From Candidatus Niyogibacteria bacterium RIFCSPLOWO2_01_FULL_45_48 (GTDB lineage Bacteria; Patescibacteriota; Minisyncoccia; HO2-45-28), in assembly GCA_001819395.1 (NCBI GenBank), contig MHMQ01000032.1, positions 20,150 to 84,149 of the forward strand: a DNA stretch of 64,000 nucleotides, in the 5' to 3' direction. Below the pieces are notes generated by a model, which ran no database searches, was not told the DNA's origin, and saw nothing but the letters and a program-made list of their open reading frames with translations. Below are positions 29,802-43,135 of this stretch, in pieces; position 1 is the stretch's first letter, and each line of letters starts with the position of its first letter. Both the position numbers and the translations under genes were made by a program.

Positions 29802-32480
29802 ATGCCTCCATTTGGAAATTTCACCATTAAGGCGCAGGAAGCGATTCGCCGAGCTCACGAGCTGGCTATTGAGCGCGGTCAGAATCAGGTAGACGCCATG
29901 CATTTGCTCGCGGCCTTGATGCTTCAGGAAGAGGGCATAGTTATTTCTATTTTTGACAAAATGGATATTGACCCGGCCGACATTATGGATACGGTAATGG
30001 ACACTCTGGATTCAAAAACCAAGTCAAACGTTTTGATGCCGTCAAGCCAGATGTTTTTGAGCCAGGAATTCGGCCGTATTCTTGATACCGCTTACCGCAT
30101 AGCCCAGTCGATGAAAGACGAATTTATTTCAACCGAACATTTGTTTATGGCTCTCTTTGATGTTCCGTCCAAGGCCCAGAATGTTTTAGCTTCAAACCAC
30201 ATACAGCGCGAGACGGTAAAACATGCTCTTGACGATTTGCGGGGGTCGGGCCGCGTGACCGACCTTGAGCCCGAAACCAAAATGAAGGTTCTTGAGCGAT
30301 ACGGACGCAACTTGACCAAGCTTGCGCGCGAAGACAAGCTTGATCCGGTTATAGGCCGTGACAACGAAATACGCAGGATAATGCAGATACTTTCGCGCCG
30401 GACCAAAAACAATCCTGTCTTGATAGGAGAAGCGGGGGTGGGCAAAACCGCGGTTGTCGAGGGACTGGCGCGCAAGATTGTTTCCGGCGATATTCCGGAC
30501 GCTCTTAAAGACAAAGAGCTTATTGCTCTTGATCTGGCTTCGTTGGTCGCGGGAACGAAATACAGAGGCGAATTTGAGGAGAGGCTTAAAGCGGTTATGC
30601 GCGAAATAGAAAAAGCAGAGGGCAAAATAATACTTTTTATAGACGAATTACACACTATTGTGGGCGCGGGCGCGGCCGAGGGAGCGATTGACGCTTCAAA
30701 CATGCTTAAACCGGCTTTGGCCAGAGGAGAACTGCATGCCATAGGCGCCACAACCCTTAAAGAGTATCAGCGCCACATTGAAAAAGATTCGGCGTTAACC
30801 CGGCGTTTTCAGCCGGTTTACGTTGAGGAGCCTTCCCAAAAAGATGCGGTGAGTATTCTTCGCGGAATCAAGGAGCGCTACGAAATACACCACGGAGTGC
30901 AGATAACCGACGCCGCGCTTCAGTCCGCGGTTCAACTGTCCAGCCGTTACATAACCGACAGGTTTTTGCCGGATAAAGCGGTTGATTTGGTAGACGAAGC
31001 AGCCTCTGCTTTGCGTCTGGATCTCGACAGCATGCCGGGAGAACTTGAGAAAGCCAGAAACGACGCAACGAGAATGGAAATAGAGAAAGAGGCTCTGAAA
31101 AAAGAGGAGGGAGTTTCGCCAAAAAACAAAATAAAAAAATTACAGCGTGAAATAGACAGCTTGCGTGAAAAAACATCGGGGACGGAGATGAAATGGAAAA
31201 ACGAAAAGGAAACCATCGCCAATATAAGGCAATTCAAAAAAGATTTGGACGCTCTTCGCCAGGAAGCCGAAGCGGCGGAACGAGCGGCCGATTTGTCGAA
31301 AGTTGCCGAAATAAGATATGGCCGGGTTCCGGAGCTTGAGCGCCGGCTTTTGGCGGAAGAGACGCGCTTGCGCAAGCTTCAGTCTTCGCGCAGCATTTTA
31401 AAGCAGAAAGTCGGACCGGAAGATGTGGCCGAGGTTGTCGCCCGCTGGACCGGAATTCCGGTGACTAATTTATTGGAAACAGAGGCAAAAAAGCTTTTAC
31501 GCATGGAGGAAGAACTCGGGCAGAAGGTTGTCGGACAAGAAGAGGCGATTTCCAAAATCGCAAATGCGGTAAGACGCTCGAGGGCCGGAATAGGAGATCC
31601 GTCGCGTCCGATAGGATCGTTTATGTTTCTGGGTCCCACAGGGGTTGGAAAAACGGAACTTGCGCGCAGGCTTGCCGAATTTATGTTTGATGACGAAAAA
31701 GCCATGATCCGCGTTGATATGTCCGAATACATGGAAAAACACGCGGTATCGAAACTTATCGGCTCTCCTCCGGGCTATGTCGGCTACGAAGAAGGGGGAC
31801 AGCTTGCCGAATTGATACGCCACCGGCCTTACGCGGTCGTGCTTTTTGACGAGATAGAAAAGGCCCATCCGGAGGTATTTCACATAATGCTTCAGATTCT
31901 TGATAATGGACGTTTGACCGACGCCAAGGGCCGGCATATTAATTTTAAAAACACGATTGTTATTATGACTTCGAACGTCGGCTCGGAATTCGCGCGCGAG
32001 CTTGGCCGGCTTGGTTTTGAAACATCGGAAGACAGAGACGGAGACGGAAACCGCGAAAAAGGCCTGAAAGACAAAATTATGATGTCGCTTGAGCAAAGAT
32101 TCAGGCCGGAATTTTTAAACCGGCTCGATGAAATAATTATTTTCAACCCATTGGGCCGCGAAGAAATCGCGAAGATCGTTGATATCCAGCTGCGGGAAGT
32201 GCGTGAACGGTTGGCCGACAAAGGGGTGGGTTTTGAGTTAAGCAAAGAAGCAAAAAATTATTTGGCCAGCACGGGCTATGACCCGAATTTTGGCGCGCGT
32301 CCGTTGAGGCGGCTGATCCAGTCCAAAATACTGAATGCCGTTGCCGAGCGCATGATAGCCGGTTCGGTTAAGGCCGGCGACAGATTGGTTATCGATGAAA
32401 AAGGGGGGAACTTGGCAATAGAATCAAAATCGGAAGTCCGTAAAAAGACTTCAAAAAAGGCCAAAAGCGCGGTAAGATAA
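29802..32480 (+). CDS. clpB: chaperone ClpB (two AAA+ modules)
   Basis: 892 aa; N-domain, two Walker A motifs ([20 protein letters not shown]), long middle coiled coil, GYVGY pore loop. Confidence 0.95.
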
Positions 32481-33672: not shown

Positions 33673-33837
33673 ATGCCGCAACCGAATCTATTTAAATTCA
33701 AATGTTCCGTTTGCAAACGCGGAAACTATTACAGCACCAAAAACAAGAAAAAAGTTGAGCGAAAAATAGAGCTCAAAAAGTTTTGTAAGTGGTGCAAAAA
33801 ACATACCTTGCATAAAGAGGCAAAAATCACTGCTTGA
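33673..33837 (+). CDS. rpmG: ribosomal protein L33
   Basis: 54 aa (below ORF-track cutoff): MPQPNLFKFKCSVCKRGNYYSTKNKK...KFCKWCKKHTLHKEAK, the CxxC...CxxC zinc ribbon of L33; TGA stop. Confidence 0.8.
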   Translation: MPQPNLFKFKCSVCKRGNYYSTKNKKKVERKIELKKFCKWCKKHTLHKEAKITA

Positions 33838-33878
33838 TTTTTGATATTATTATATAGTATTTTTTGCGCCATTTGCGC

Positions 33879-34014
33879 GAAAGGGGGTCGGGGAAAAGCG
33901 GAAGGGTTTCCCCGCGGAGGAAAACAGACCCGACGCGCGAAGCGGTCGGGGCGCTAGAAACCGAGGGTTTCTAGGGAGCACGAGCGAATCCCTTGAGGTG
34001 AGCGAGCTGCGACG
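33879..34014. repeat. 136-bp GC-rich structured element, copy 1
   Basis: GAAAGGGGGTCGGGG...CTAGAAACCGAGGGTTTCTAG...GCGAGCTGCGACG; identical to copies 2 and 3 except one substitution (A for C in ACAGACCCGAC). Confidence 0.9.
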
Positions 34015-34074
34015 AAAATGGTGCAGAAAGCACACGGTTCATAAAGAAGTCAAAATAACGGCTTAGATTTTTTT

Positions 34075-34145
34075 GGGGGTATGGTTCAATGGTAGAACAT
34101 TGGTCTCCAAAACCAAAGATCAGGGTTCGATTCCTTGTACCCCCG
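34075..34145 (+). tRNA. tRNA-Trp (anticodon CCA), copy 1
   Basis: Acceptor GGGGGTA/TACCCCC, D-stem GTTC/GAAC, anticodon stem TTGGT/ACCAA with loop CTCCAAA, T-arm CAGGG-TTCGATT-CCTTG (one G-U). Confidence 0.85.
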
Positions 34146-34193
34146 CATTGAAAATTTTGGCATCTTTTGATGCCTAGAATTTCAAATTTGATA

Positions 34194-34212
34194 GGTACAA
34201 GGAATCGAACCC
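34194..34212. repeat. inverted 19-nt copy of the tRNA-Trp T-arm/acceptor 3' end
   Basis: GGTACAAGGAATCGAACCC is the exact reverse complement of GGGTTCGATTCCTTGTACC in the upstream tRNA; second copy at 34530-34548. Confidence 0.85.
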
Positions 34213-34214
34213 AC

Positions 34215-34350
34215 GAAAGGGGGTCGGGGAAAAGCGGAAGGGTTTCCCCGCGGAGGAAAACAGCCCCGACGCGCGAAGCGGTCGGGGCGCTAGAAACCGA
34301 GGGTTTCTAGGGAGCACGAGCGAATCCCTTGAGGTGAGCGAGCTGCGACG
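34215..34350. repeat. 136-bp GC-rich element, copy 2
   Basis: Exact 336-bp period with copy 1. Confidence 0.9.
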
Positions 34351-34410
34351 AAAATGGTGCAGAAAGCACACGGTTCATAAAGAAGTCAAAATAACGGCTT
34401 AGATTTTTTT

Positions 34411-34481
34411 GGGGGTATGGTTCAATGGTAGAACATTGGTCTCCAAAACCAAAGATCAGGGTTCGATTCCTTGTACCCCCG
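34411..34481 (+). tRNA. tRNA-Trp (anticodon CCA), copy 2, identical to copy 1
   Basis: Same sequence 336 bp downstream. Confidence 0.85.
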
Positions 34482-34529
34482 CATTGAAAATTTTGGCATC
34501 TTTTGATGCCTAGAATTTCAAATTTGATA

Positions 34530-34548
34530 GGTACAAGGAATCGAACCC
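34530..34548. repeat. second inverted tRNA-Trp 3' fragment
   Basis: GGTACAAGGAATCGAACCC. Confidence 0.85.
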
Positions 34549-34550
34549 AC

Positions 34551-34686
34551 GAAAGGGGGTCGGGGAAAAGCGGAAGGGTTTCCCCGCGGAGGAAAACAGC
34601 CCCGACGCGCGAAGCGGTCGGGGCGCTAGAAACCGAGGGTTTCTAGGGAGCACGAGCGAATCCCTTGAGGTGAGCGAGCTGCGACG
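34551..34686. repeat. 136-bp GC-rich element, copy 3
   Basis: Identical to copy 2. Confidence 0.9.
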
Positions 34687-35691: not shown

Positions 35692-35804
35692 GCGCGAAAC
35701 TCGCCCCCTTTTTGTTTGGCCGCACATGCTTTTCAAATATATTGTTTTATGCAAGTATTCTTTTGGCGAGAGGTGCGCCTCTCAATGCCAGAAAGGAGGA
35801 GGGT

Positions 35805-36437
35805 ATGCCCTTCACCGAAGGACTGGAAGCGTTGATTGGAAAAAAAGGCCGTATTACCGATACAGAGTGGTTGGTCTTGATTGAGGCCAGGCGCAAACTC
35901 ATTAAACCGCACCTTGATTCATTTACTCTTCCGATACTTGGGTCATTAAAATGTTTGCGAAACGAACTTAGTTTTAAACACGAGATTGATTGTGATATTT
36001 CCGTATCCGGTGGGGATCAGCGTTTTTCGCTAAAAACTCAAGGGTTTTTCTGGGCCCAACCTTGGTCTGCTGTGGAAAGGATTTCTAATAGCGGATCTTG
36101 TAATTGGCCCGGCTACGTAGCTTGTCCTGACGGAACTATGCATATCTGGGGCCTTACGCGTTCTGGTTTGTGGGTTCTCGTGACCATTGAATTTGTCGGC
36201 GAATCCGGATATAAAGAGCGTGGCTATGAGCGGGCAAAATCTGTAAAAATTTTTGAAGCCGATTTACGCGCGATCATAGAAAAAACGAAAGAAAATCCAA
36301 GACACATGTGGAGTCATCTCGGCGCGGTTATTAAAAGTTTCGCAGAGCGCCGTAAGTGTCTGTATAACCAAGCTCTTGATCTTGCCCGAATGGTCGAAAT
36401 TGAGGAACTGGCTCTTTCAATTGTTTTGGGGAAGTAA
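35805..36437 (+). CDS. hypothetical protein
   Basis: ATG at 35805 preceded by GGAGGAGGG; 210 aa, Cys-containing, no known motif. Upstream in-frame start at 35712 lacks RBS. Confidence 0.4.
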   Translation: MPFTEGLEALIGKKGRITDTEWLVLIEARRKLIKPHLDSFTLPILGSLKCLRNELSFKHEIDCDISVSGGDQRFSLKTQGFFWAQPWSAVERISNSGSCNWPGYVACPDGTMHIWGLTRSGLWVLVTIEFVGESGYKERGYERAKSVKIFEADLRAIIEKTKENPRHMWSHLGAVIKSFAERRKCLYNQALDLARMVEIEELALSIVLGK

Positions 36438-38401: not shown

Positions 38402-38527
38402 ATTTTTTGGGGTTGACACCGGCCATTTTTATACGGCTGGTTTTGTTTTTTGTTTGATTTTTTTGGCTGGCGGTTTATATTCTGGATAGGTTATCCGCCC
38501 GTTGAAAACTGAATAAGGAGAAAAAAG

Positions 38528-39856
38528 ATGACCAAAATTTCCGAATGTCTGAAAAAGAAAATTGGAGAAGAACTTTGGGAAACCTTAAAAAGAATTCGTC
38601 ACGAAAACAAAAAGGGGTTTATTAGAACCCCCGAAGCGAAAGCTGTTTTGTCCCGGCTTGTGGAAATTAATCTGAAGCCGAAAGAATTTGAGGACCTGCT
38701 TGGATACAAGTGGGGAAGTGTCAAAAACGCACTTTCTTATCACCAAATCAAGAAACCAGTTCACAAAGCCGAAGTTGCGGCACACGACATTAATTCCCCC
38801 GAATTTAGCGAAAGATTTTTTAAGTTTGTGCGCAGCAAGACGGTTGTGGAAATGTGCGAGGAATTTAATTTGAGTGACGAACAGGTAAGTACGCTTTTGG
38901 CAAATCCGCCTGCGGAACATGGCATATATAAGGATTCCAGCAGGCACACGGCTACCTACTTCTGTATTTTTAAAGGCAAAAATGTCGAGCCGAAAGATAG
39001 GATTTGGAATTATGTTTTGGCTAAAGACGATGGAGCCGCGGTTGATATCGTGTTTCCGAAAGATATTGGTTGGAAAAAAGAAAGGTCCGGAGATTCGTCT
39101 GAGCGCAGATTGGAAAAAATGCGCATTGTGCCCATGGCCGACATTTGGCTTGGCGACCCTCTTCACGACTCAGCGCTTTTGGACGAGAGAATAGCCTGGA
39201 TTGCCAGAGAGCCGCACATTTTTTGGTTTTTTAACGGAGATGCGATTAAACCCCCGACAGCAAAAGAAATTAAAGACGGCGTGCTGGAAAAACTTTATCT
39301 TGAGTTGAGAACAAAACTTGCGCCGATTTCACACAAGTGGCTTTGGGCGCAAGAAGGGTGTTTTGAGACGAAGTTGCATGCGACCAAAGACGCATTTGAT
39401 CCGATTGACGACCTTTGTGATGAGTGGGATGTGCCATATTTCAGAACTCCGGTTTCCGTCGGCCTTCATTGGGCTGGAAATTTATTTAAGTTTTACTGTA
39501 TTCATGGAAAATCGCAGGCTCAGAAAAAGGGTTCAAAAATCAACGCCATCGCGCGCATCCTTGGTGAAGTGGAATTCAACCATTTTTATGTTATGTCTCA
39601 CATCAAGGATTCGATTTCTAGCAAACAAGTGCGTGTTTCCCAAGACGTGTTGAATTTTGATTTGGCGGAAAAAAAACAATATTTATTCATCACACCCTCT
39701 TTTGTGAAGTACGATCGGTCTCGTGATGCGAAGTGGGGATATCCTCTTCCTGCCAGAGGGCAAGCAAGCTGCGCCTTGTATATAGACGGCGATTATCATT
39801 TTTATTCTTCACCAATAGCCACAGGTCTGGTTGCTGTGGGGGAGGACAACATATGA
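38528..39856 (+). CDS. calcineurin-like metallophosphoesterase paralog with degenerate metal-binding motifs (probable pseudoenzyme) plus unknown N-domain
   Basis: 442 aa; aligns motif-for-motif with next gene: VPMADIWLGD / LVPLSDLQWG, FFNGDAIKP / FLNGDILNN, but GNHE replaced by QEGCFE and GHVHE by SHIKD; RBS AAGGAG 8 nt before ATG. Confidence 0.5.
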   Translation: MTKISECLKKKIGEELWETLKRIRHENKKGFIRTPEAKAVLSRLVEINLKPKEFEDLLGYKWGSVKNALSYHQIKKPVHKAEVAAHDINSPEFSERFFKFVRSKTVVEMCEEFNLSDEQVSTLLANPPAEHGIYKDSSRHTATYFCIFKGKNVEPKDRIWNYVLAKDDGAAVDIVFPKDIGWKKERSGDSSERRLEKMRIVPMADIWLGDPLHDSALLDERIAWIAREPHIFWFFNGDAIKPPTAKEIKDGVLEKLYLELRTKLAPISHKWLWAQEGCFETKLHATKDAFDPIDDLCDEWDVPYFRTPVSVGLHWAGNLFKFYCIHGKSQAQKKGSKINAIARILGEVEFNHFYVMSHIKDSISSKQVRVSQDVLNFDLAEKKQYLFITPSFVKYDRSRDAKWGYPLPARGQASCALYIDGDYHFYSSPIATGLVAVGEDNI

Positions 39857-40890
39857 CCTCGCAAAAATTCACCTTACTTGGAAAAAAATTTGAAGAATTA
39901 ATGAAAAGAGGAATTGTTCCCAAAGAATCTTTACTCAAAGAGTCCGGTTTTTCGGAAGAGCAGATTAAAAAAATGCTTGGCCGCGATGTGGAAGGCGGCC
40001 GCATTTTTGAACAAAGGGTTGAAAAGGAAATTTATTACCGCTTAATCAGAGAAACACCGCCGGTAGTTACTCAGGAGCGCGTTTGGCAATACGCCCAGTG
40101 CGCGGATCGCAGAAAGCCGTATTTCTGGTTTCAATTTCCGAATACCGATTGGAAAAAAATAATTTTGGTTCCTCTTTCCGACCTTCAGTGGGGTTCGGAA
40201 GAATGTGACGTCGCCCAACTTAAAGATTATGTCAAATATATCGGGGAGAATGACCATGTTTTCGCGTTTCTCAACGGAGATATCCTGAATAACGCTTTGC
40301 CGGATTCTCCCGGCGGTTCAATTTTTTGGGATGTGGCGAGACCCCGCGAGCAAGTAAGGACCGTGATTGATTTACTGGCCCCAATCGCTCACAAAATTCT
40401 TTGGGCATTGCCCGGTAATCACGAAGAGCGCACAATCAAGAGGGCAGATATAGATCCTTTGTTCTGGATTTGCCAGAAACTTGGCATTCCTTATTCGGAT
40501 CAGCCAATTTTTGCCGATATTCTTTGGCGGAGCCACCGTTTCAATTTCTATTGTTTTCATGGCATCAGCGGTTCCAGAACTATGGGTGGCAAGTTAAACG
40601 CGGCCATGCGTCCGATTGATTGGACCGAGTTCACGATGTTTTACATAATGGGGCATGTTCATGAACCAATGGGCAACCCTGTTACAAGAAGGTGTGTTCT
40701 TAGGGAGTATGACAGCAAGGGGGGTTTGACCGGCTTGCGGGTTGTTGACAGAGATCAGTATGTGATTATATGCGCGGCTTGGCTGAAGTTTTGGGGAGGT
40801 TACGGCGCAAAGATGGGTTTTTCTCCGCAGTCTCAAGGCGGAACCCCGTGCCTTTTGTATAAAAACGGCGATTACGGAATCTCGGAGTAA
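39853..40890 (+). CDS. calcineurin-like metallophosphoesterase (Mre11/SbcD-type motif set) with ~110-aa N-terminal extension
   Basis: ATG 39853 overlaps previous stop (ATGA), GGAGGA 6 nt upstream; motifs SDLQWG, GDILN, GNHEE, FHGISGS, GHVHEP. Confidence 0.6.
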   Translation: MTSQKFTLLGKKFEELMKRGIVPKESLLKESGFSEEQIKKMLGRDVEGGRIFEQRVEKEIYYRLIRETPPVVTQERVWQYAQCADRRKPYFWFQFPNTDWKKIILVPLSDLQWGSEECDVAQLKDYVKYIGENDHVFAFLNGDILNNALPDSPGGSIFWDVARPREQVRTVIDLLAPIAHKILWALPGNHEERTIKRADIDPLFWICQKLGIPYSDQPIFADILWRSHRFNFYCFHGISGSRTMGGKLNAAMRPIDWTEFTMFYIMGHVHEPMGNPVTRRCVLREYDSKGGLTGLRVVDRDQYVIICAAWLKFWGGYGAKMGFSPQSQGGTPCLLYKNGDYGISE

Positions 40891-40921: not shown

Positions 40922-40957
40922 AATCCCCTCGGCAATTTGTCGGGGGATTTTCTTTTT
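40922..40957 (+). terminator. rho-independent terminator after phosphoesterase gene
   Basis: AATCCCC-13 nt loop-GGGGATT followed by TTCTTTTT. Confidence 0.5.
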
Positions 40958-40996: not shown

Positions 40997-43135
40997 TTGA
41001 AAACAAACCCTCGGGAGGCAAAACCCATGGTCGGTAGCGAGAAAAACGGAAATCCGGCCGGGGGCGGTTCTTCCGGCGGGATTCCAGAAATTTTGCGGAT
41101 ATTGCCTGCCAGCATAACCAAAACCGTGGTCTTTCCTCACCGGCTTTTCACGAACCTTTCTTACGCCACAAACAACAAGAAAATGGTCTCCGACCTAAAA
41201 CTGGCCGCAGAAGACGGCCATGCGTTTGTTTTGGTCTCGGTAAACGGCAAGGTGACGGAAATAGGAGTTTTGTGCGAAACAAAGAATTTCAGATTTTTCC
41301 CTAAAAACGGAGTGGTGTCTGTTGATATCAAGCCGCTTAAACGCGTTTACTGCACTGAGATTGTGTTTGCTCCCGATCCGGCTGCCGGGTTTACGCGCGT
41401 GAAGTGGAATTACCGAAACGAAATCGCGGTTAGTCCCGAAAGAGGAGAAGAAAAAAGCTTTGTTGATAAGATGATTGCCCTATGTTTTTCTTTCCATGAG
41501 TTTGAGAGTGCCATTGGCGGATCTCTTAGCGAGTCCGAAGGGAAATATTTTGAAAATGCCAATAGGCTTTTGGGAGAGCTGAACGCGGAAAATTTGTCCG
41601 AAACTCTGGATATAATAATGGCCGTTTTACAAAACGTTTATTGGACTTGGGAAGATTTTGACTTCGGAACCCCGGCATTCATCATATTAAAAGAAGAGAA
41701 TGTTGAAACCAGGTTGGATAGGGTTGTAGAATTGCTGGAGATTATTTTCCATCATGTTATGGATTATGGCTTGCTTGGCGACGACGATGTCTGGAGGACC
41801 GGTTCATTGCCGGAAAGGGCGCTCGTAAAATATGACGCGAAAAAACCGGCTGTAGACACGTCTTTGGCCGAGGTAAATATCCGGGAAGAGCTTGCAAAAC
41901 CGAGAAAAACAACAAAACCTCCCATGATCATTTCGGCTGGCGTTCGCCACGGATCAACGACTTTGCTGGACCACAAGAAACCCGACGCTTTTTCCAAAAA
42001 TGTAGTTGAATTTCTTGACCAGCGCGTTGTTGGTCAGGAGAGGGCGAAGATTCATATGGCCAGAGTGTTTTTGCGCATAAAACTTGGACGAACCGATCCG
42101 CGCCGCCCGTTAATAGGCGGAATCTTTTGCGGTCCGACAGGTGTTGGAAAAACAGAATTGGTTAAGGCCGGCGCCGAATTTATGTTCGGAGATTTTAACG
42201 GTTATACTCACATAGGATGCAATACTTTGCAGGAGCATCATGACGTCAAGTGTCTTGATGGCGCGCCGCCAAGCTACGTTGGCTACAACGACGACACAAT
42301 TTTAGCCCAATGGCGCCTTGATAGGCCGCATTTTCTGTGGCACATGAGCCAAAAGCACGGAGTTAAAATTGGCGATACGAAAAAAGTTTTAAGCGAGCTT
42401 TCATCAAAACACCCGCAGTTTACCGAAAAACAAGTAATGACCGCATCTGGATATAGGCCCGAGGATAAGTACTGGTCAATCGTACTTTTGGATGAGATAG
42501 AACGGGCGCACCCGGCTCTTTACTCGTTTTTGCTGCGAATTTTTGATGACGGAACTCTTGCCTTAAAGAACGGCGAATTCACGGATTTGAAGCGGACTGT
42601 GTTTTTTTTGACATCAAATATTCACGGAAAAGAAATTCTTGAAGAAGGGTCCGGAAAAAATATAGGCTTCCATCAGGCCGGAGAAAACTTGTCCGTAGAG
42701 AAAAGATTCGTGAGCCAGACATGGAAAGAGGTTGTTGGCGCTGTTGTGAAGCACTTTTCTTCAAACCCGGCTTTTTTGGGCAGGATCGGAAAAGAAAACC
42801 TGATTGTCTTTTACCCGCTTGGAGCGAAAGAGCTTTTGCAAATTCTTGAAAATATATATTTGCCGGAATTTACAGAATACATGAAAGAAAAAGCAGGAAT
42901 AGACAAATTTTTTATAACGGATAAGGCAAAAAACCTTGTTATTGCGGAAACAAGAGATCCGACAAGCAGAGTTTTGGGCGCAAGAGCACTTAAGAAGGTT
43001 TTTGAGCGTATGGTTGAAATCCCCGTTTTAAATCTTCTGGCGCGAGCCGAAGAGGGAGACGGGCTGAAAGCAGGCGATCGCGTTTTGGTTGACGCAAAGG
43101 ACGGCGCGATGTTCATTTTTAAGGAAGCAGATTAG
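40997..43135 (+). CDS. orphan single-module Clp/Hsp100 D2-type AAA+ ATPase with unknown ~330-aa N-terminal domain
   Basis: C-terminal ~380 aa align with D2 of the clpB in this window: VVGQERAKIHMARVF...[10 protein letters not shown] (Walker A), PSYVGY pore loop, IVLLDEIERAHP (Walker B), FLTSN sensor-1, C-terminal small domain; ~45-aa insertion between pore loop and Walker B; N-terminal half has no recognisable motif. Internal ATG at 41027 preceded by GGGAGG may be the true start; TATAAT at 40970-40975 upstream. Confidence 0.7.
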   Translation: MKTNPREAKPMVGSEKNGNPAGGGSSGGIPEILRILPASITKTVVFPHRLFTNLSYATNNKKMVSDLKLAAEDGHAFVLVSVNGKVTEIGVLCETKNFRFFPKNGVVSVDIKPLKRVYCTEIVFAPDPAAGFTRVKWNYRNEIAVSPERGEEKSFVDKMIALCFSFHEFESAIGGSLSESEGKYFENANRLLGELNAENLSETLDIIMAVLQNVYWTWEDFDFGTPAFIILKEENVETRLDRVVELLEIIFHHVMDYGLLGDDDVWRTGSLPERALVKYDAKKPAVDTSLAEVNIREELAKPRKTTKPPMIISAGVRHGSTTLLDHKKPDAFSKNVVEFLDQRVVGQERAKIHMARVFLRIKLGRTDPRRPLIGGIFCGPTGVGKTELVKAGAEFMFGDFNGYTHIGCNTLQEHHDVKCLDGAPPSYVGYNDDTILAQWRLDRPHFLWHMSQKHGVKIGDTKKVLSELSSKHPQFTEKQVMTASGYRPEDKYWSIVLLDEIERAHPALYSFLLRIFDDGTLALKNGEFTDLKRTVFFLTSNIHGKEILEEGSGKNIGFHQAGENLSVEKRFVSQTWKEVVGAVVKHFSSNPAFLGRIGKENLIVFYPLGAKELLQILENIYLPEFTEYMKEKAGIDKFFITDKAKNLVIAETRDPTSRVLGARALKKVFERMVEIPVLNLLARAEEGDGLKAGDRVLVDAKDGAMFIFKEAD

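Follow-up and report, generated by a model that had tools for sequence, protein, structure and literature searches.

We identified a tandem pair of paralogous metallophosphoesterase (MPE) genes, here called A and B, in a 64,000-nt window of the Candidatus Niyogibacteria bacterium RIFCSPLOWO2_01_FULL_45_48 genome (contig MHMQ01000032.1; all positions below count from the first nucleotide of this window). We consider the chances about even that the two genes encode an old, obligate two-subunit enzyme acting on DNA, in which B would be the catalytic subunit and A a non-catalytic, DNA-binding scaffold. Genomes of Patescibacteria (CPR) are small and rich in unannotated genes, and in the literature on MPE proteins of this group we found no description of such a pair.

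Organization of the gene pair

Gene A (38528-39856, plus strand, 442 aa) encodes a catalytically degenerate MPE paralog, and gene B (39853-40890, plus strand, 345 aa) encodes an MPE that we presume to be the catalytic subunit; both start with ATG. A preceding sequence-only reading had placed tandem paralogs at exactly these coordinates and had pointed to an ATGA overlap between them, which we find at 39853-39856, where the start codon of B (ATG, 39853-39855) overlaps the stop codon of A (TGA, 39854-39856). This coupling junction (39841..39856, plus strand) also includes an internal Shine-Dalgarno motif, GGAGG (39841-39845), within the 3' end of gene A. In the open reading frame listing, a longer, GTG-started frame covering gene B begins at 39733.

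Gene A has its own Shine-Dalgarno motif, AAGGAG (38515..38520, plus strand), read from the sequence 7 nt ahead of its ATG. Within the 126-nt gap between guaB and gene A lies a promoter-like site, TTGATT-16-TATATT (38454..38481, plus strand), which matches 9 of 12 consensus positions and is weak evidence, its frequency in shuffled sequences being no lower. A consensus scan also located a terminator-like hairpin with a T-run 36 nt past the stop codon of B (40926..40956, plus strand; 9-bp stem with 6 G-C pairs). Together, the promoter-like site and the hairpin would delimit a bicistronic A-B unit. The genes flanking the pair in the window are housekeeping genes (HtrA, ClpB, IMPDH, PCMT, YceG, MnmA and AlaRS).

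Family membership and fold

The similarity between A and B is far above chance (BLASTP, 122 bits, E 8e-36, 26% identity over 329 columns, A109-423/B27-341), and the two proteins are paralogs, as the sequence-only reading had proposed. All of the motif pairings it listed were recovered in this alignment and in the family alignments. The structure models of both proteins show the four-layer alpha/beta sandwich fold of MPEs, with DP1, the polymerase B-subunits and Mre11/SbcD as the nearest folds; the model of A is of moderate confidence (pLDDT 76), with low values at aa 328-364. When the B-family profile was compared with PDB sequences, DP1 was the only MPE matched (E 1.3e-4).

Neither window protein matches PF00149 at E <= 1, and comparisons of A and B with NCBIfam, PADLOC and PDB sequences returned nothing useful, with no match at all in PADLOC. 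Among relatives, PF00149 is matched at E <= 0.01 by 66 of 97 B-family proteins (best 1.3e-9) and by 0 of 21 A-family members. Because no direct Pfam match exists for the window proteins, their membership in the superfamily rests on transitive homology and on the fold. PHROGs is the only family database that matches them directly: the PHROG 7339 profile, annotated as 'DNA repair exonuclease', hits B with an E-value of 6.9e-33 (profile positions 25-240 of 263) and A with 1.6e-14. At a profile E <= 1e-30, the family comprises at least ~700 clusters at 50% identity; by signature classification, the 150 best profile matches include many short, canonical MPE-only proteins. Some B-type homologs carry LAGLIDADG inteins, one of which sits directly after GNHE. 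Two family members are annotated as 'transposase' by JGI.

Active-site residues and accessory domains

Protein B begins with a winged-helix/HTH domain (aa 1-66), followed by an MPE domain (aa ~100-341), whose catalytic positions were located from alignments at 40180..40662 (plus strand). It retains seven of the eight canonical MPE residues, namely D110 (40180), D143 (40279), N189-H190 (40417-40422), H236 (40558), H268 (40654) and H270 (40660). The exception is the motif I histidine, which, as had been noted from the sequence, is replaced by glutamine (H112Q, 40186); furthermore, N146 (40288) stands where the family has Glu. In a signature classification of 262 family proteins plus window B, 181 B-type sequences have the signature DHDNHHHH and 14 have DQDNHHHH. 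The Q112 substitution is restricted to a Niyogibacteria-like clade, in which the Q and N/D substitutions at positions 112 and 146 often occur together. The other seven positions are intact in 14 of 14 Q-type sequences, at identities to window B down to ~42%, which argues that B is still an enzyme. B is thus a likely active member of the calcineurin-like MPE superfamily, although, given Q112, N146 and the missing Pfam match, its activity could be reduced. Glutamine can ligate metal in MPEs, as in E. coli 5'-nucleotidase.

Protein A has a degenerate MPE domain (aa ~195-428), the corresponding positions of which were aligned to 39140..39607 (plus strand). Four of the eight canonical positions are kept, D205 (39140), D238 (39239), H326 (39503) and H358 (39599), whereas W207 replaces the motif I His (39146), C278-F279 replaces the motif III Asn-His, including the catalytic His (39359-39364), and K360 replaces the motif VI His (39605). 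In both Mre11 (H85) and DP1 (H451), nuclease activity requires the GNH histidine (PMC4996933). Every A-type has lost the histidines of motifs I and VI as well as the Asn-His of motif III; the histidines of motifs IV and V persist in 16 of 16 paired A-types and in the majority of degenerate signatures within the classified set of 262 proteins plus window B. The family alignments bear out a loss of metal and catalytic residues that is selective to the upstream copy. A-types also share strongly conserved motifs of their own (WAQxGCFE, AQKKGSKxNA and VMSHIKD). Judged from its sequence, A counts in the PF00149 superfamily only as a degenerate member.

The N-terminal extensions of the two proteins had been described as distinct and of unknown function. 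What B lacks is confined to the first ~100 aa of A, which include a helical Myb/SANT-like HTH region (aa ~1-75). The proximal ~80 aa are common to both proteins and form a winged-helix/HTH domain (aa ~91-148 in A), so that the extensions are in part homologous, HTH-type domains. N-terminal domain matches in the family are to HTH, wHTH, Sigma70_r4 and GerE. The extra HTH-type domains of A differ between lineages, and one A ortholog carries an Ada Zn-binding domain.

Conservation of the pair across Patescibacteria

Related loci were retrieved with a 15-sequence alignment. In all 18 of the Patescibacteria-type chromosomal loci, A sits directly ahead of B and is read from the same strand. The genes overlap (-4 or -1) in 10 of 16 loci for which the junction was examined and are separated by 2-29 nt in five; the start of B is unclear in the remaining one (L013). 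This arrangement persists in lineages whose B proteins share no more than 34-45% identity with window B, and the pair is likely to serve a need of these cells. The A clade is monophyletic and its tree mirrors that of B; the A-A and B-B distances correlate with r 0.94, although vertical inheritance by itself would make the distances of any gene pair correlate. Purifying selection on A and on B is strong, with dN/dS of ~0.09 (0.08-0.09 for A and 0.085 for B). In addition, one 781-aa single open reading frame in a chromosomal context fuses A to B; a search with this protein as the query recovered only itself, and the fusion, a singleton from one assembly, is weak evidence. The conserved order, overlaps, co-divergence, purifying selection and fusion strengthen the earlier suggestion that a degenerate and a catalytic partner may work together.

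Genes for UvrD, RecA, RuvC, PolX or HhH-GPD proteins occur near the pair in some loci; the gene neighbourhood is conserved among close relatives only. UvrD, the one neighbour to recur, was considered as a partner and set aside, since 4 loci are too few; the neighbour clustering was noisy owing to spurious antisense frames in high-GC loci. The downstream ClpB-like AAA+ gene (40997-43135) was likewise rejected as a part of the system, because the closest two relatives (L005 and L006) are the only ones to have it behind the pair; L001 has an unrelated gene in that place. No Rad50/SbcC-like or DP2-like gene adjoins the pair in the loci read.

Relatives in phages

The family is common in phages, with members in 28 GenBank phage records and 60 IMG/VR loci. 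The phage relatives that we checked, in the 60 IMG/VR loci and 5 others, are all single, catalytically intact copies located near portal, terminase, endolysin or methyltransferase genes. In Bacillus phage KLEB27-3, a 484-aa protein encoded upstream was considered as an A-type partner and proved unrelated. One member from an archaeal virus aligns over 96% of B, HTH domain included.

Proposed function and alternatives

We propose that A and B descend from an HTH-bearing MPE of the DP1/Mre11 type that was duplicated in tandem long ago. B would have kept the two-metal site and most likely hydrolyses nucleic-acid phosphodiester bonds, as an exo- or endonuclease. A, lacking metal site 1 and the GNH catalytic histidine, would be incapable of hydrolysis by the canonical mechanism; it might still bind a single metal through D238, C278, H326 and H358. 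It would have been retained as a non-catalytic partner that adds further HTH-type DNA-binding domains and completes a putative A-B dimer, and co-transcription with translational coupling would supply the subunits in equal amounts. The HTH-type domains, the Ada domain, the inteins, the repair-gene neighbours and the PHROG 7339 label all hint at a role on DNA.

The foremost alternative, to which we give a clearly smaller though real chance, keeps the same two subunits and changes the substrate: B would act on small molecules, as a phosphodiesterase or pyrophosphatase, and A would regulate it as a subunit, the substrate possibly being a nucleotide, a cyclic or dinucleotide, or a lipid or cell-wall precursor, as for LpxH.

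Somewhat less probable again, the paralogs may no longer cooperate, with A an HTH DNA-binding protein (e.g. a regulator) whose dead MPE domain has become a ligand- or protein-binding module, B acting independently, and the linkage reflecting shared transcription. The lineage-specific N-terminal domains of A, its private conserved motifs and the single-copy state of all phage homologs examined would fit such a separation, but the adjacency and order in all 18 loci, with frequent 4-nt overlaps, would be hard to keep across 34-45% identity without dependence, and the natural A-B fusion also speaks against it.

A more specific proposal, which we regard as rather unlikely, is that the pair represents in bacteria what the DP1/B-subunit module is in archaea and eukaryotes, with B as a DP1-like 3'-5' exonuclease and A as an inactivated scaffold that would dock onto a replication or repair polymerase or onto another DNA machine of Patescibacteria. 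If so, reduced genomes would possess an archaeal-type proofreading or end-processing activity, and the conversion of an active MPE into a scaffold would have happened independently in bacteria.

It is improbable that both copies are impaired here, B by H112Q and E146N, and that the pair is a non-enzymatic scaffold or binding module. Window B does lack the Pfam Metallophos match that 66 of 97 relatives have, and the Q and N/D substitutions tend to co-occur in its clade; however, D110, D143, N189, H190, H236, H268 and H270 are intact throughout the 14 Q-type sequences, the dN/dS of 0.085 is low, and glutamine is a possible metal ligand. Least probable of all is that the pair belongs to a prophage, a mobile element or an anti-phage defence system rather than to the housekeeping complement: the abundance of the family in phages, the match to PHROG 7339 and the two 'transposase' labels point that way, but the window flanks are housekeeping, the other loci are likewise chromosomal, PADLOC gives no match, the phage copies are always single, and the phylogenies of A and B run in parallel, as for vertically inherited genes.

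Should A and B indeed form an asymmetric nuclease of one active and one dead MPE, they would be a clean bacterial case of a homodimer turned into an enzyme-plus-pseudoenzyme heteromer, and would provide the first functional handle on a family in which many phage proteins bear the unsupported label 'DNA repair exonuclease'. Neither window protein is picked up by Pfam, NCBIfam or PADLOC, and defining the family would improve the annotation of CPR and phage genomes.

Comparison with known systems

The phage proteins of PHROG 7339 are true sequence homologs of A and B, but are single copies, and we found no biochemical characterisation of them in the literature. Mycobacteriophage Bxb1 encodes another MPE, gp47, a recombination directionality factor that is required for phage DNA replication; its predicted structure best matches Mre11 and DP1, and it has limited 3'-5' exonuclease activity (PMC11795197). 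Gp47 is nevertheless from a different family, being a member of PHROG 221 rather than 7339, and its hhalign probability with the B profile is about 1% (1.1%).

The nucleases Mre11 and SbcD form homodimers, possess a capping domain and depend on Rad50/SbcC, whose gene usually lies alongside. In contrast, the gene tables of the chromosomal A/B loci contain no SMC-like ATPase, B ends shortly after its MPE domain, without a capping domain, and the presumed A-B dimer would be asymmetric, with one active and one inactive half.

DP1 is the small subunit of archaeal PolD, a 3'-5' proofreading exonuclease with the MPE fold. The PDE domain of the pair resembles DP1 specifically, with a sequence identity of about 16%; however, an OB-fold precedes the PDE domain in DP1, whereas B has a winged-helix/HTH domain and no OB-fold. 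DP1 is archaeal and partnered by DP2, whereas A and B are bacterial, with no DP2-like gene nearby in the loci read, and 0 of 97 family members match the Pfam family of polymerase B-subunits.

Dead paralogs that activate an active enzyme have been described for the trypanosome 'prozyme' pairs of AdoMetDC and DHS (PMC5201418, PMC3663545). The A/B pair resembles them in its duplication, in the catalytic loss in one copy and in the persistence of that copy under purifying selection; the prozyme pairs are eukaryotic and have other folds, and an activation of B by A is putative.

The B-subunits of eukaryotic DNA polymerases alpha, delta and epsilon are inactivated MPE scaffolds. They pair with a polymerase catalytic subunit, whereas A adjoins the gene of an MPE paralog with a near-intact site; moreover, A keeps two metal-site histidines and gains a cysteine, and its accessory domains differ. 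If the two-subunit reading is correct, A and B would parallel, within bacteria, the fate of the DP1 fold in these eukaryotic subunits.

Tandem metallophosphoesterase paralogs

Two metallophosphoesterase (MPE) genes lie in tandem in the window: the upstream gene A (38528-39856, + strand; ATG start, 442 aa) and the downstream gene B (39853-40890, + strand; 345 aa, with the ATG at 39853 as its best-supported start). B is 100% identical to a protein from a RIFCSPLOWO2_01_FULL genome of Candidatus Niyogibacteria (Parcubacteria/Patescibacteria), the group from which the window derives. The stop codon of A overlaps the start codon of B in an ATGA, with a GGAGG inside A, 7 nt 5' of the B start, and an AAGGAG 5' of A. 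A weak promoter-like site (38454-38481, +) and a terminator-like hairpin (about 40926-40946, +), both consensus matches only, would delimit a bicistronic A-B unit.

A and B are significantly similar (BLASTP E 8e-36, 26% identity, spanning A109-423 and B27-341), which upholds the paralogy proposed in the sequence-only reading, and the motif pairings of that reading are identical to those in the BLASTP alignment. The distinct N-terminal extensions that it had described were borne out only in part: the alignment begins at A109/B27, and part of the extension is therefore homologous between the two proteins.

At the active-site positions of the canonical motifs I-VI (DxH, GD, GNH[DE], H, GH and GHxH), B carries D110, Q112, D143, N189, H190, H236, H268 and H270, and A carries D205, W207, D238, C278, F279, H326, H358 and K360. 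The substitutions noticed earlier in A are thus W207 for the motif I His, C278 and F279 for the Asn and the catalytic His of motif III (GNH), and K360 for the latter His of GHxH. Only one of these residues, the motif I His, is missing from B, where it is replaced by Gln as the same reading had noted; the motif III and VI histidines of B are intact. The residues for canonical two-metal hydrolysis are wholly lost in A, and the active site of B is nearly intact. Mre11 (H85) and DP1 (H451), the MPE-fold small subunit of archaeal PolD, both require the GNH histidine to act as nucleases (PMC4996933).

The same positions are lost in all A-type homologs, with varying replacements (GC[FLI]E, GTNE or GPLE in motif III; K, R, G or Q in motif VI). 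All 16 paired A-types retain the histidines of motifs IV and V, as do most degenerate signatures of the wider search. A might retain a single metal, because D238, C278, H326 and H358 occupy what we take to be the metal-2 ligand positions of the textbook MPE scheme, with Cys in place of Asn. In B, Q112 is restricted to a Niyogibacteria-like clade, often together with E146N/D, and the remaining catalytic residues are invariant in such proteins; Gln serves as a metal ligand in E. coli 5'-nucleotidase. We read the Q112 site as probably tuned yet still functional.

Family, domains and fold

Neither A nor B had a match in Pfam, NCBIfam, PADLOC or PDB sequences; the alignment to PF00149 suggested earlier thus yielded no direct Pfam match for either protein. 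Both matched PHROG 7339, a phage family labelled 'DNA repair exonuclease' (B 6.9e-33, A 1.6e-14). Homolog searches returned 107 B-like and 18 A-like clusters, and PF00149 was matched by 66 of 97 B-family members versus 0 of 21 A-family members. When 1.84 billion representative proteins were searched with a profile, 707 clusters matched at E <= 1e-30 and 3028 at E <= 1e-10.

AF2 models B confidently (pLDDT 93), with three helices and a beta-hairpin (winged helix) at the start and the MPE sandwich after them. The model of A (pLDDT 76) ranks its structural neighbours as B does, with lower scores (DP1 13.7, Pol delta B-subunits 12.2-12.4, Mre11 12.0). When the B-family sequence profile was compared with the PDB, DP1 was the sole MPE matched (E 1.3e-4), over a stretch spanning motifs I-III and the family-invariant P164/Q167 region.

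The N-terminal domains gave recurrent weak matches to HTH families (Sigma70_r4, HTH_24, HTH_28 and GerE). On visual inspection, the additional ~100 N-terminal aa in distant A-types (W-x-E/D...GRS...I) look Myb/SANT-like. The A-type N-terminal region is variable and is assembled from modules of DNA-binding type. In P0117, an A-type ortholog of 515 aa, the N-terminus carries an Ada Zn-binding domain (PF02805, E 2.3e-8).

Conservation and evolution of the pair

An A-type gene lies immediately 5' of a full B, on the same strand, in 16/16 non-redundant chromosomal loci, window included, a set gathered by similarity to B, from which genomes with A but without B would escape. The same arrangement is found additionally in loci L023 and L025. 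Across the paired loci, B is 34% to 81% identical to the window B. The genes overlap by 4 nt or 1 nt in 10 of the 16 loci and are 2-29 nt apart in five more; in the last, L013, the junction is ambiguous (B start at -19 or +83). The only non-viral loci without A are the most distant, L019 (27% identical) and L018 (a contig-end fragment). The Gammaproteobacteria, Binatia and Saccharibacteria MAG labels on related loci are probably binning errors.

A neighbour-joining tree groups the A-types in a single clade, which branches internally in the same pattern as the B clade; A-A distances correlate with B-B distances (r = 0.94), A evolving slightly faster, and dN/dS is ~0.09 for each protein against its nearest ortholog, with dS near saturation. 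These comparisons indicate that a single old duplication gave rise to A and B and that selection has since kept them inherited together, rather than A being a decaying pseudogene.

In L023 (GCA_040384425.1, a 276-kb contig), the pair sits in a 15-kb locus among ~20 genes, with a precomputed Pfam match (DUF6744) for only one of them. The contig may belong to a Patescibacteria chromosome that lacks annotation, or to a mobile element or very large phage; if it is viral, no other viral contig carries the A-B pair. In P0125 (781 aa; Logan assembly of ERR3697022, 25.9-kb contig), one ORF comprises an A-type half, a ~35-aa linker and a B-type half. The surroundings are chromosomal: YceG, NTP_transferase and PAP2 lie to one side, and HhH-GPD, iPGM and enolase to the other. 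This fusion is a singleton and may be a sequencing error.

Genomic context and phage relatives

The pair is flanked by housekeeping genes: HtrA-like protease, ClpB, methyltransferase, phosphoribosyltransferase and IMPDH on the 5' side, and a ClpB-D2-like AAA+ protein, PCMT, YceG, M50 protease, MnmA and AlaRS on the 3' side. The AAA+ gene directly 3' of the pair (40997-43135, +; TTG start in the ORF listing, 712 aa) encodes an ATPase module of ClpB-D2 type only (AAA_2 1.8e-27, ClpB_D2-small) and an N-terminal region weakly resembling the Lon substrate-binding domain; a canonical 892-aa ClpB is separately encoded at 29802-32480. It is probably not a component of the A-B system, because L005 and L006, the two closest relatives, are the only other loci where it adjoins the pair. 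Between the methyltransferase and phosphoribosyltransferase genes, an ORF of 241 aa (35712-36437, +; TTG start) has no meaningful Pfam match (best DUF2937, E 0.27). Just 3' of an rpmG-like ORF (33673-33837), a 336-bp unit is repeated in tandem (33878-34686; ~2.4 copies, 99-100% identity) and holds two identical tRNA-Trp(CCA) genes (34075-34146 and 34411-34482); the repeat could be a recent true duplication or an assembly artefact.

All 60 of 60 IMG/VR loci carry one B-type gene and no A-type gene, and the GenBank phage relatives are likewise single copy. Phage copies occur in a large terminase/portal interval, beside portal/prohead genes of a T4-like contig, beside a ClpP-type protease, in a tail-fibre/holin interval and near ParB-methyltransferase genes. 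Those of L024 (7001-8230), L026 (6515-7570) and Bacillus phage KLEB27-3 (L021, 4989-5882) lie in or at the edge of head-packaging modules, in the orders portal - methyltransferase - MPE - DUF932 - prohead protease/gp23, large terminase - hypothetical - MPE - portal, and MPE - ClpP-like protease. A Methanofastidiosa virus protein is alignable over 96% of B, HTH domain included. Four B-type homologs (P0132, P0196, P0217 and P0218) carry intein/LAGLIDADG insertions at no fewer than two (>=2) different sites, in P0132 immediately after the catalytic GNHE (GNHE|CLSEDT...). Inteins prefer conserved sites in DNA-metabolism proteins.

Proposed function

A and B are linked, MPE-fold paralogs with a common HTH domain, frequent translational coupling and purifying selection. 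The earlier interpretation as a degenerate and a catalytic partner was essentially right. We propose that the two proteins would form a complex, a heterodimer or one of higher order, in which B is the catalytic subunit and A provides a scaffold and binds DNA. Its substrate would be a nucleic acid, as suggested by the closeness in structure and profile to DP1, B-subunits and Mre11, by the HTH domains, Ada fusion and inteins, and by occasional repair-gene neighbours (UvrD in 4 loci; RecA/RuvC/PolX in L025; HhH-GPD beside the fusion protein P0125).

A small-molecule substrate is an unlikely but serious alternative. Somewhat less probable is that A, with its own variable N-terminal modules, was neofunctionalised and that A and B have independent functions, tightly linked and co-inherited as they are. 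That both copies are inactive in this genome, B carrying Q112 beside a degenerate A, we consider improbable, the other catalytic residues of B being invariant. A mobile, prophage or defence element, as the phage relatives might suggest, is very improbable, given that the neighbours are housekeeping genes, that PADLOC gave no match and that A and B co-diverge vertically.

Comparison with known systems

The A-B pair belongs to the MPE superfamily and PHROG 7339. It falls outside the DP1/B-subunit family because an OB domain, a visible polymerase partner and a Pfam B-subunit match are all absent, and outside Mre11/SbcD because it has neither a Rad50/SbcC partner nor a capping domain; membership of the Bxb1 gp47 family was also rejected. 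Our literature search for an MPE gene pair found no description, and the lineage-wide pairing of a DP1-like MPE with a pseudo-MPE is so far undescribed. For the complex and substrate that we infer, the nearest systems in possible mode of action are DP1 and the dimeric MPE nucleases of Mre11/SbcD type, and the active/dead asymmetry of B and A is reminiscent of 'prozyme' pairs and of the B-subunits of eukaryotic polymerases.
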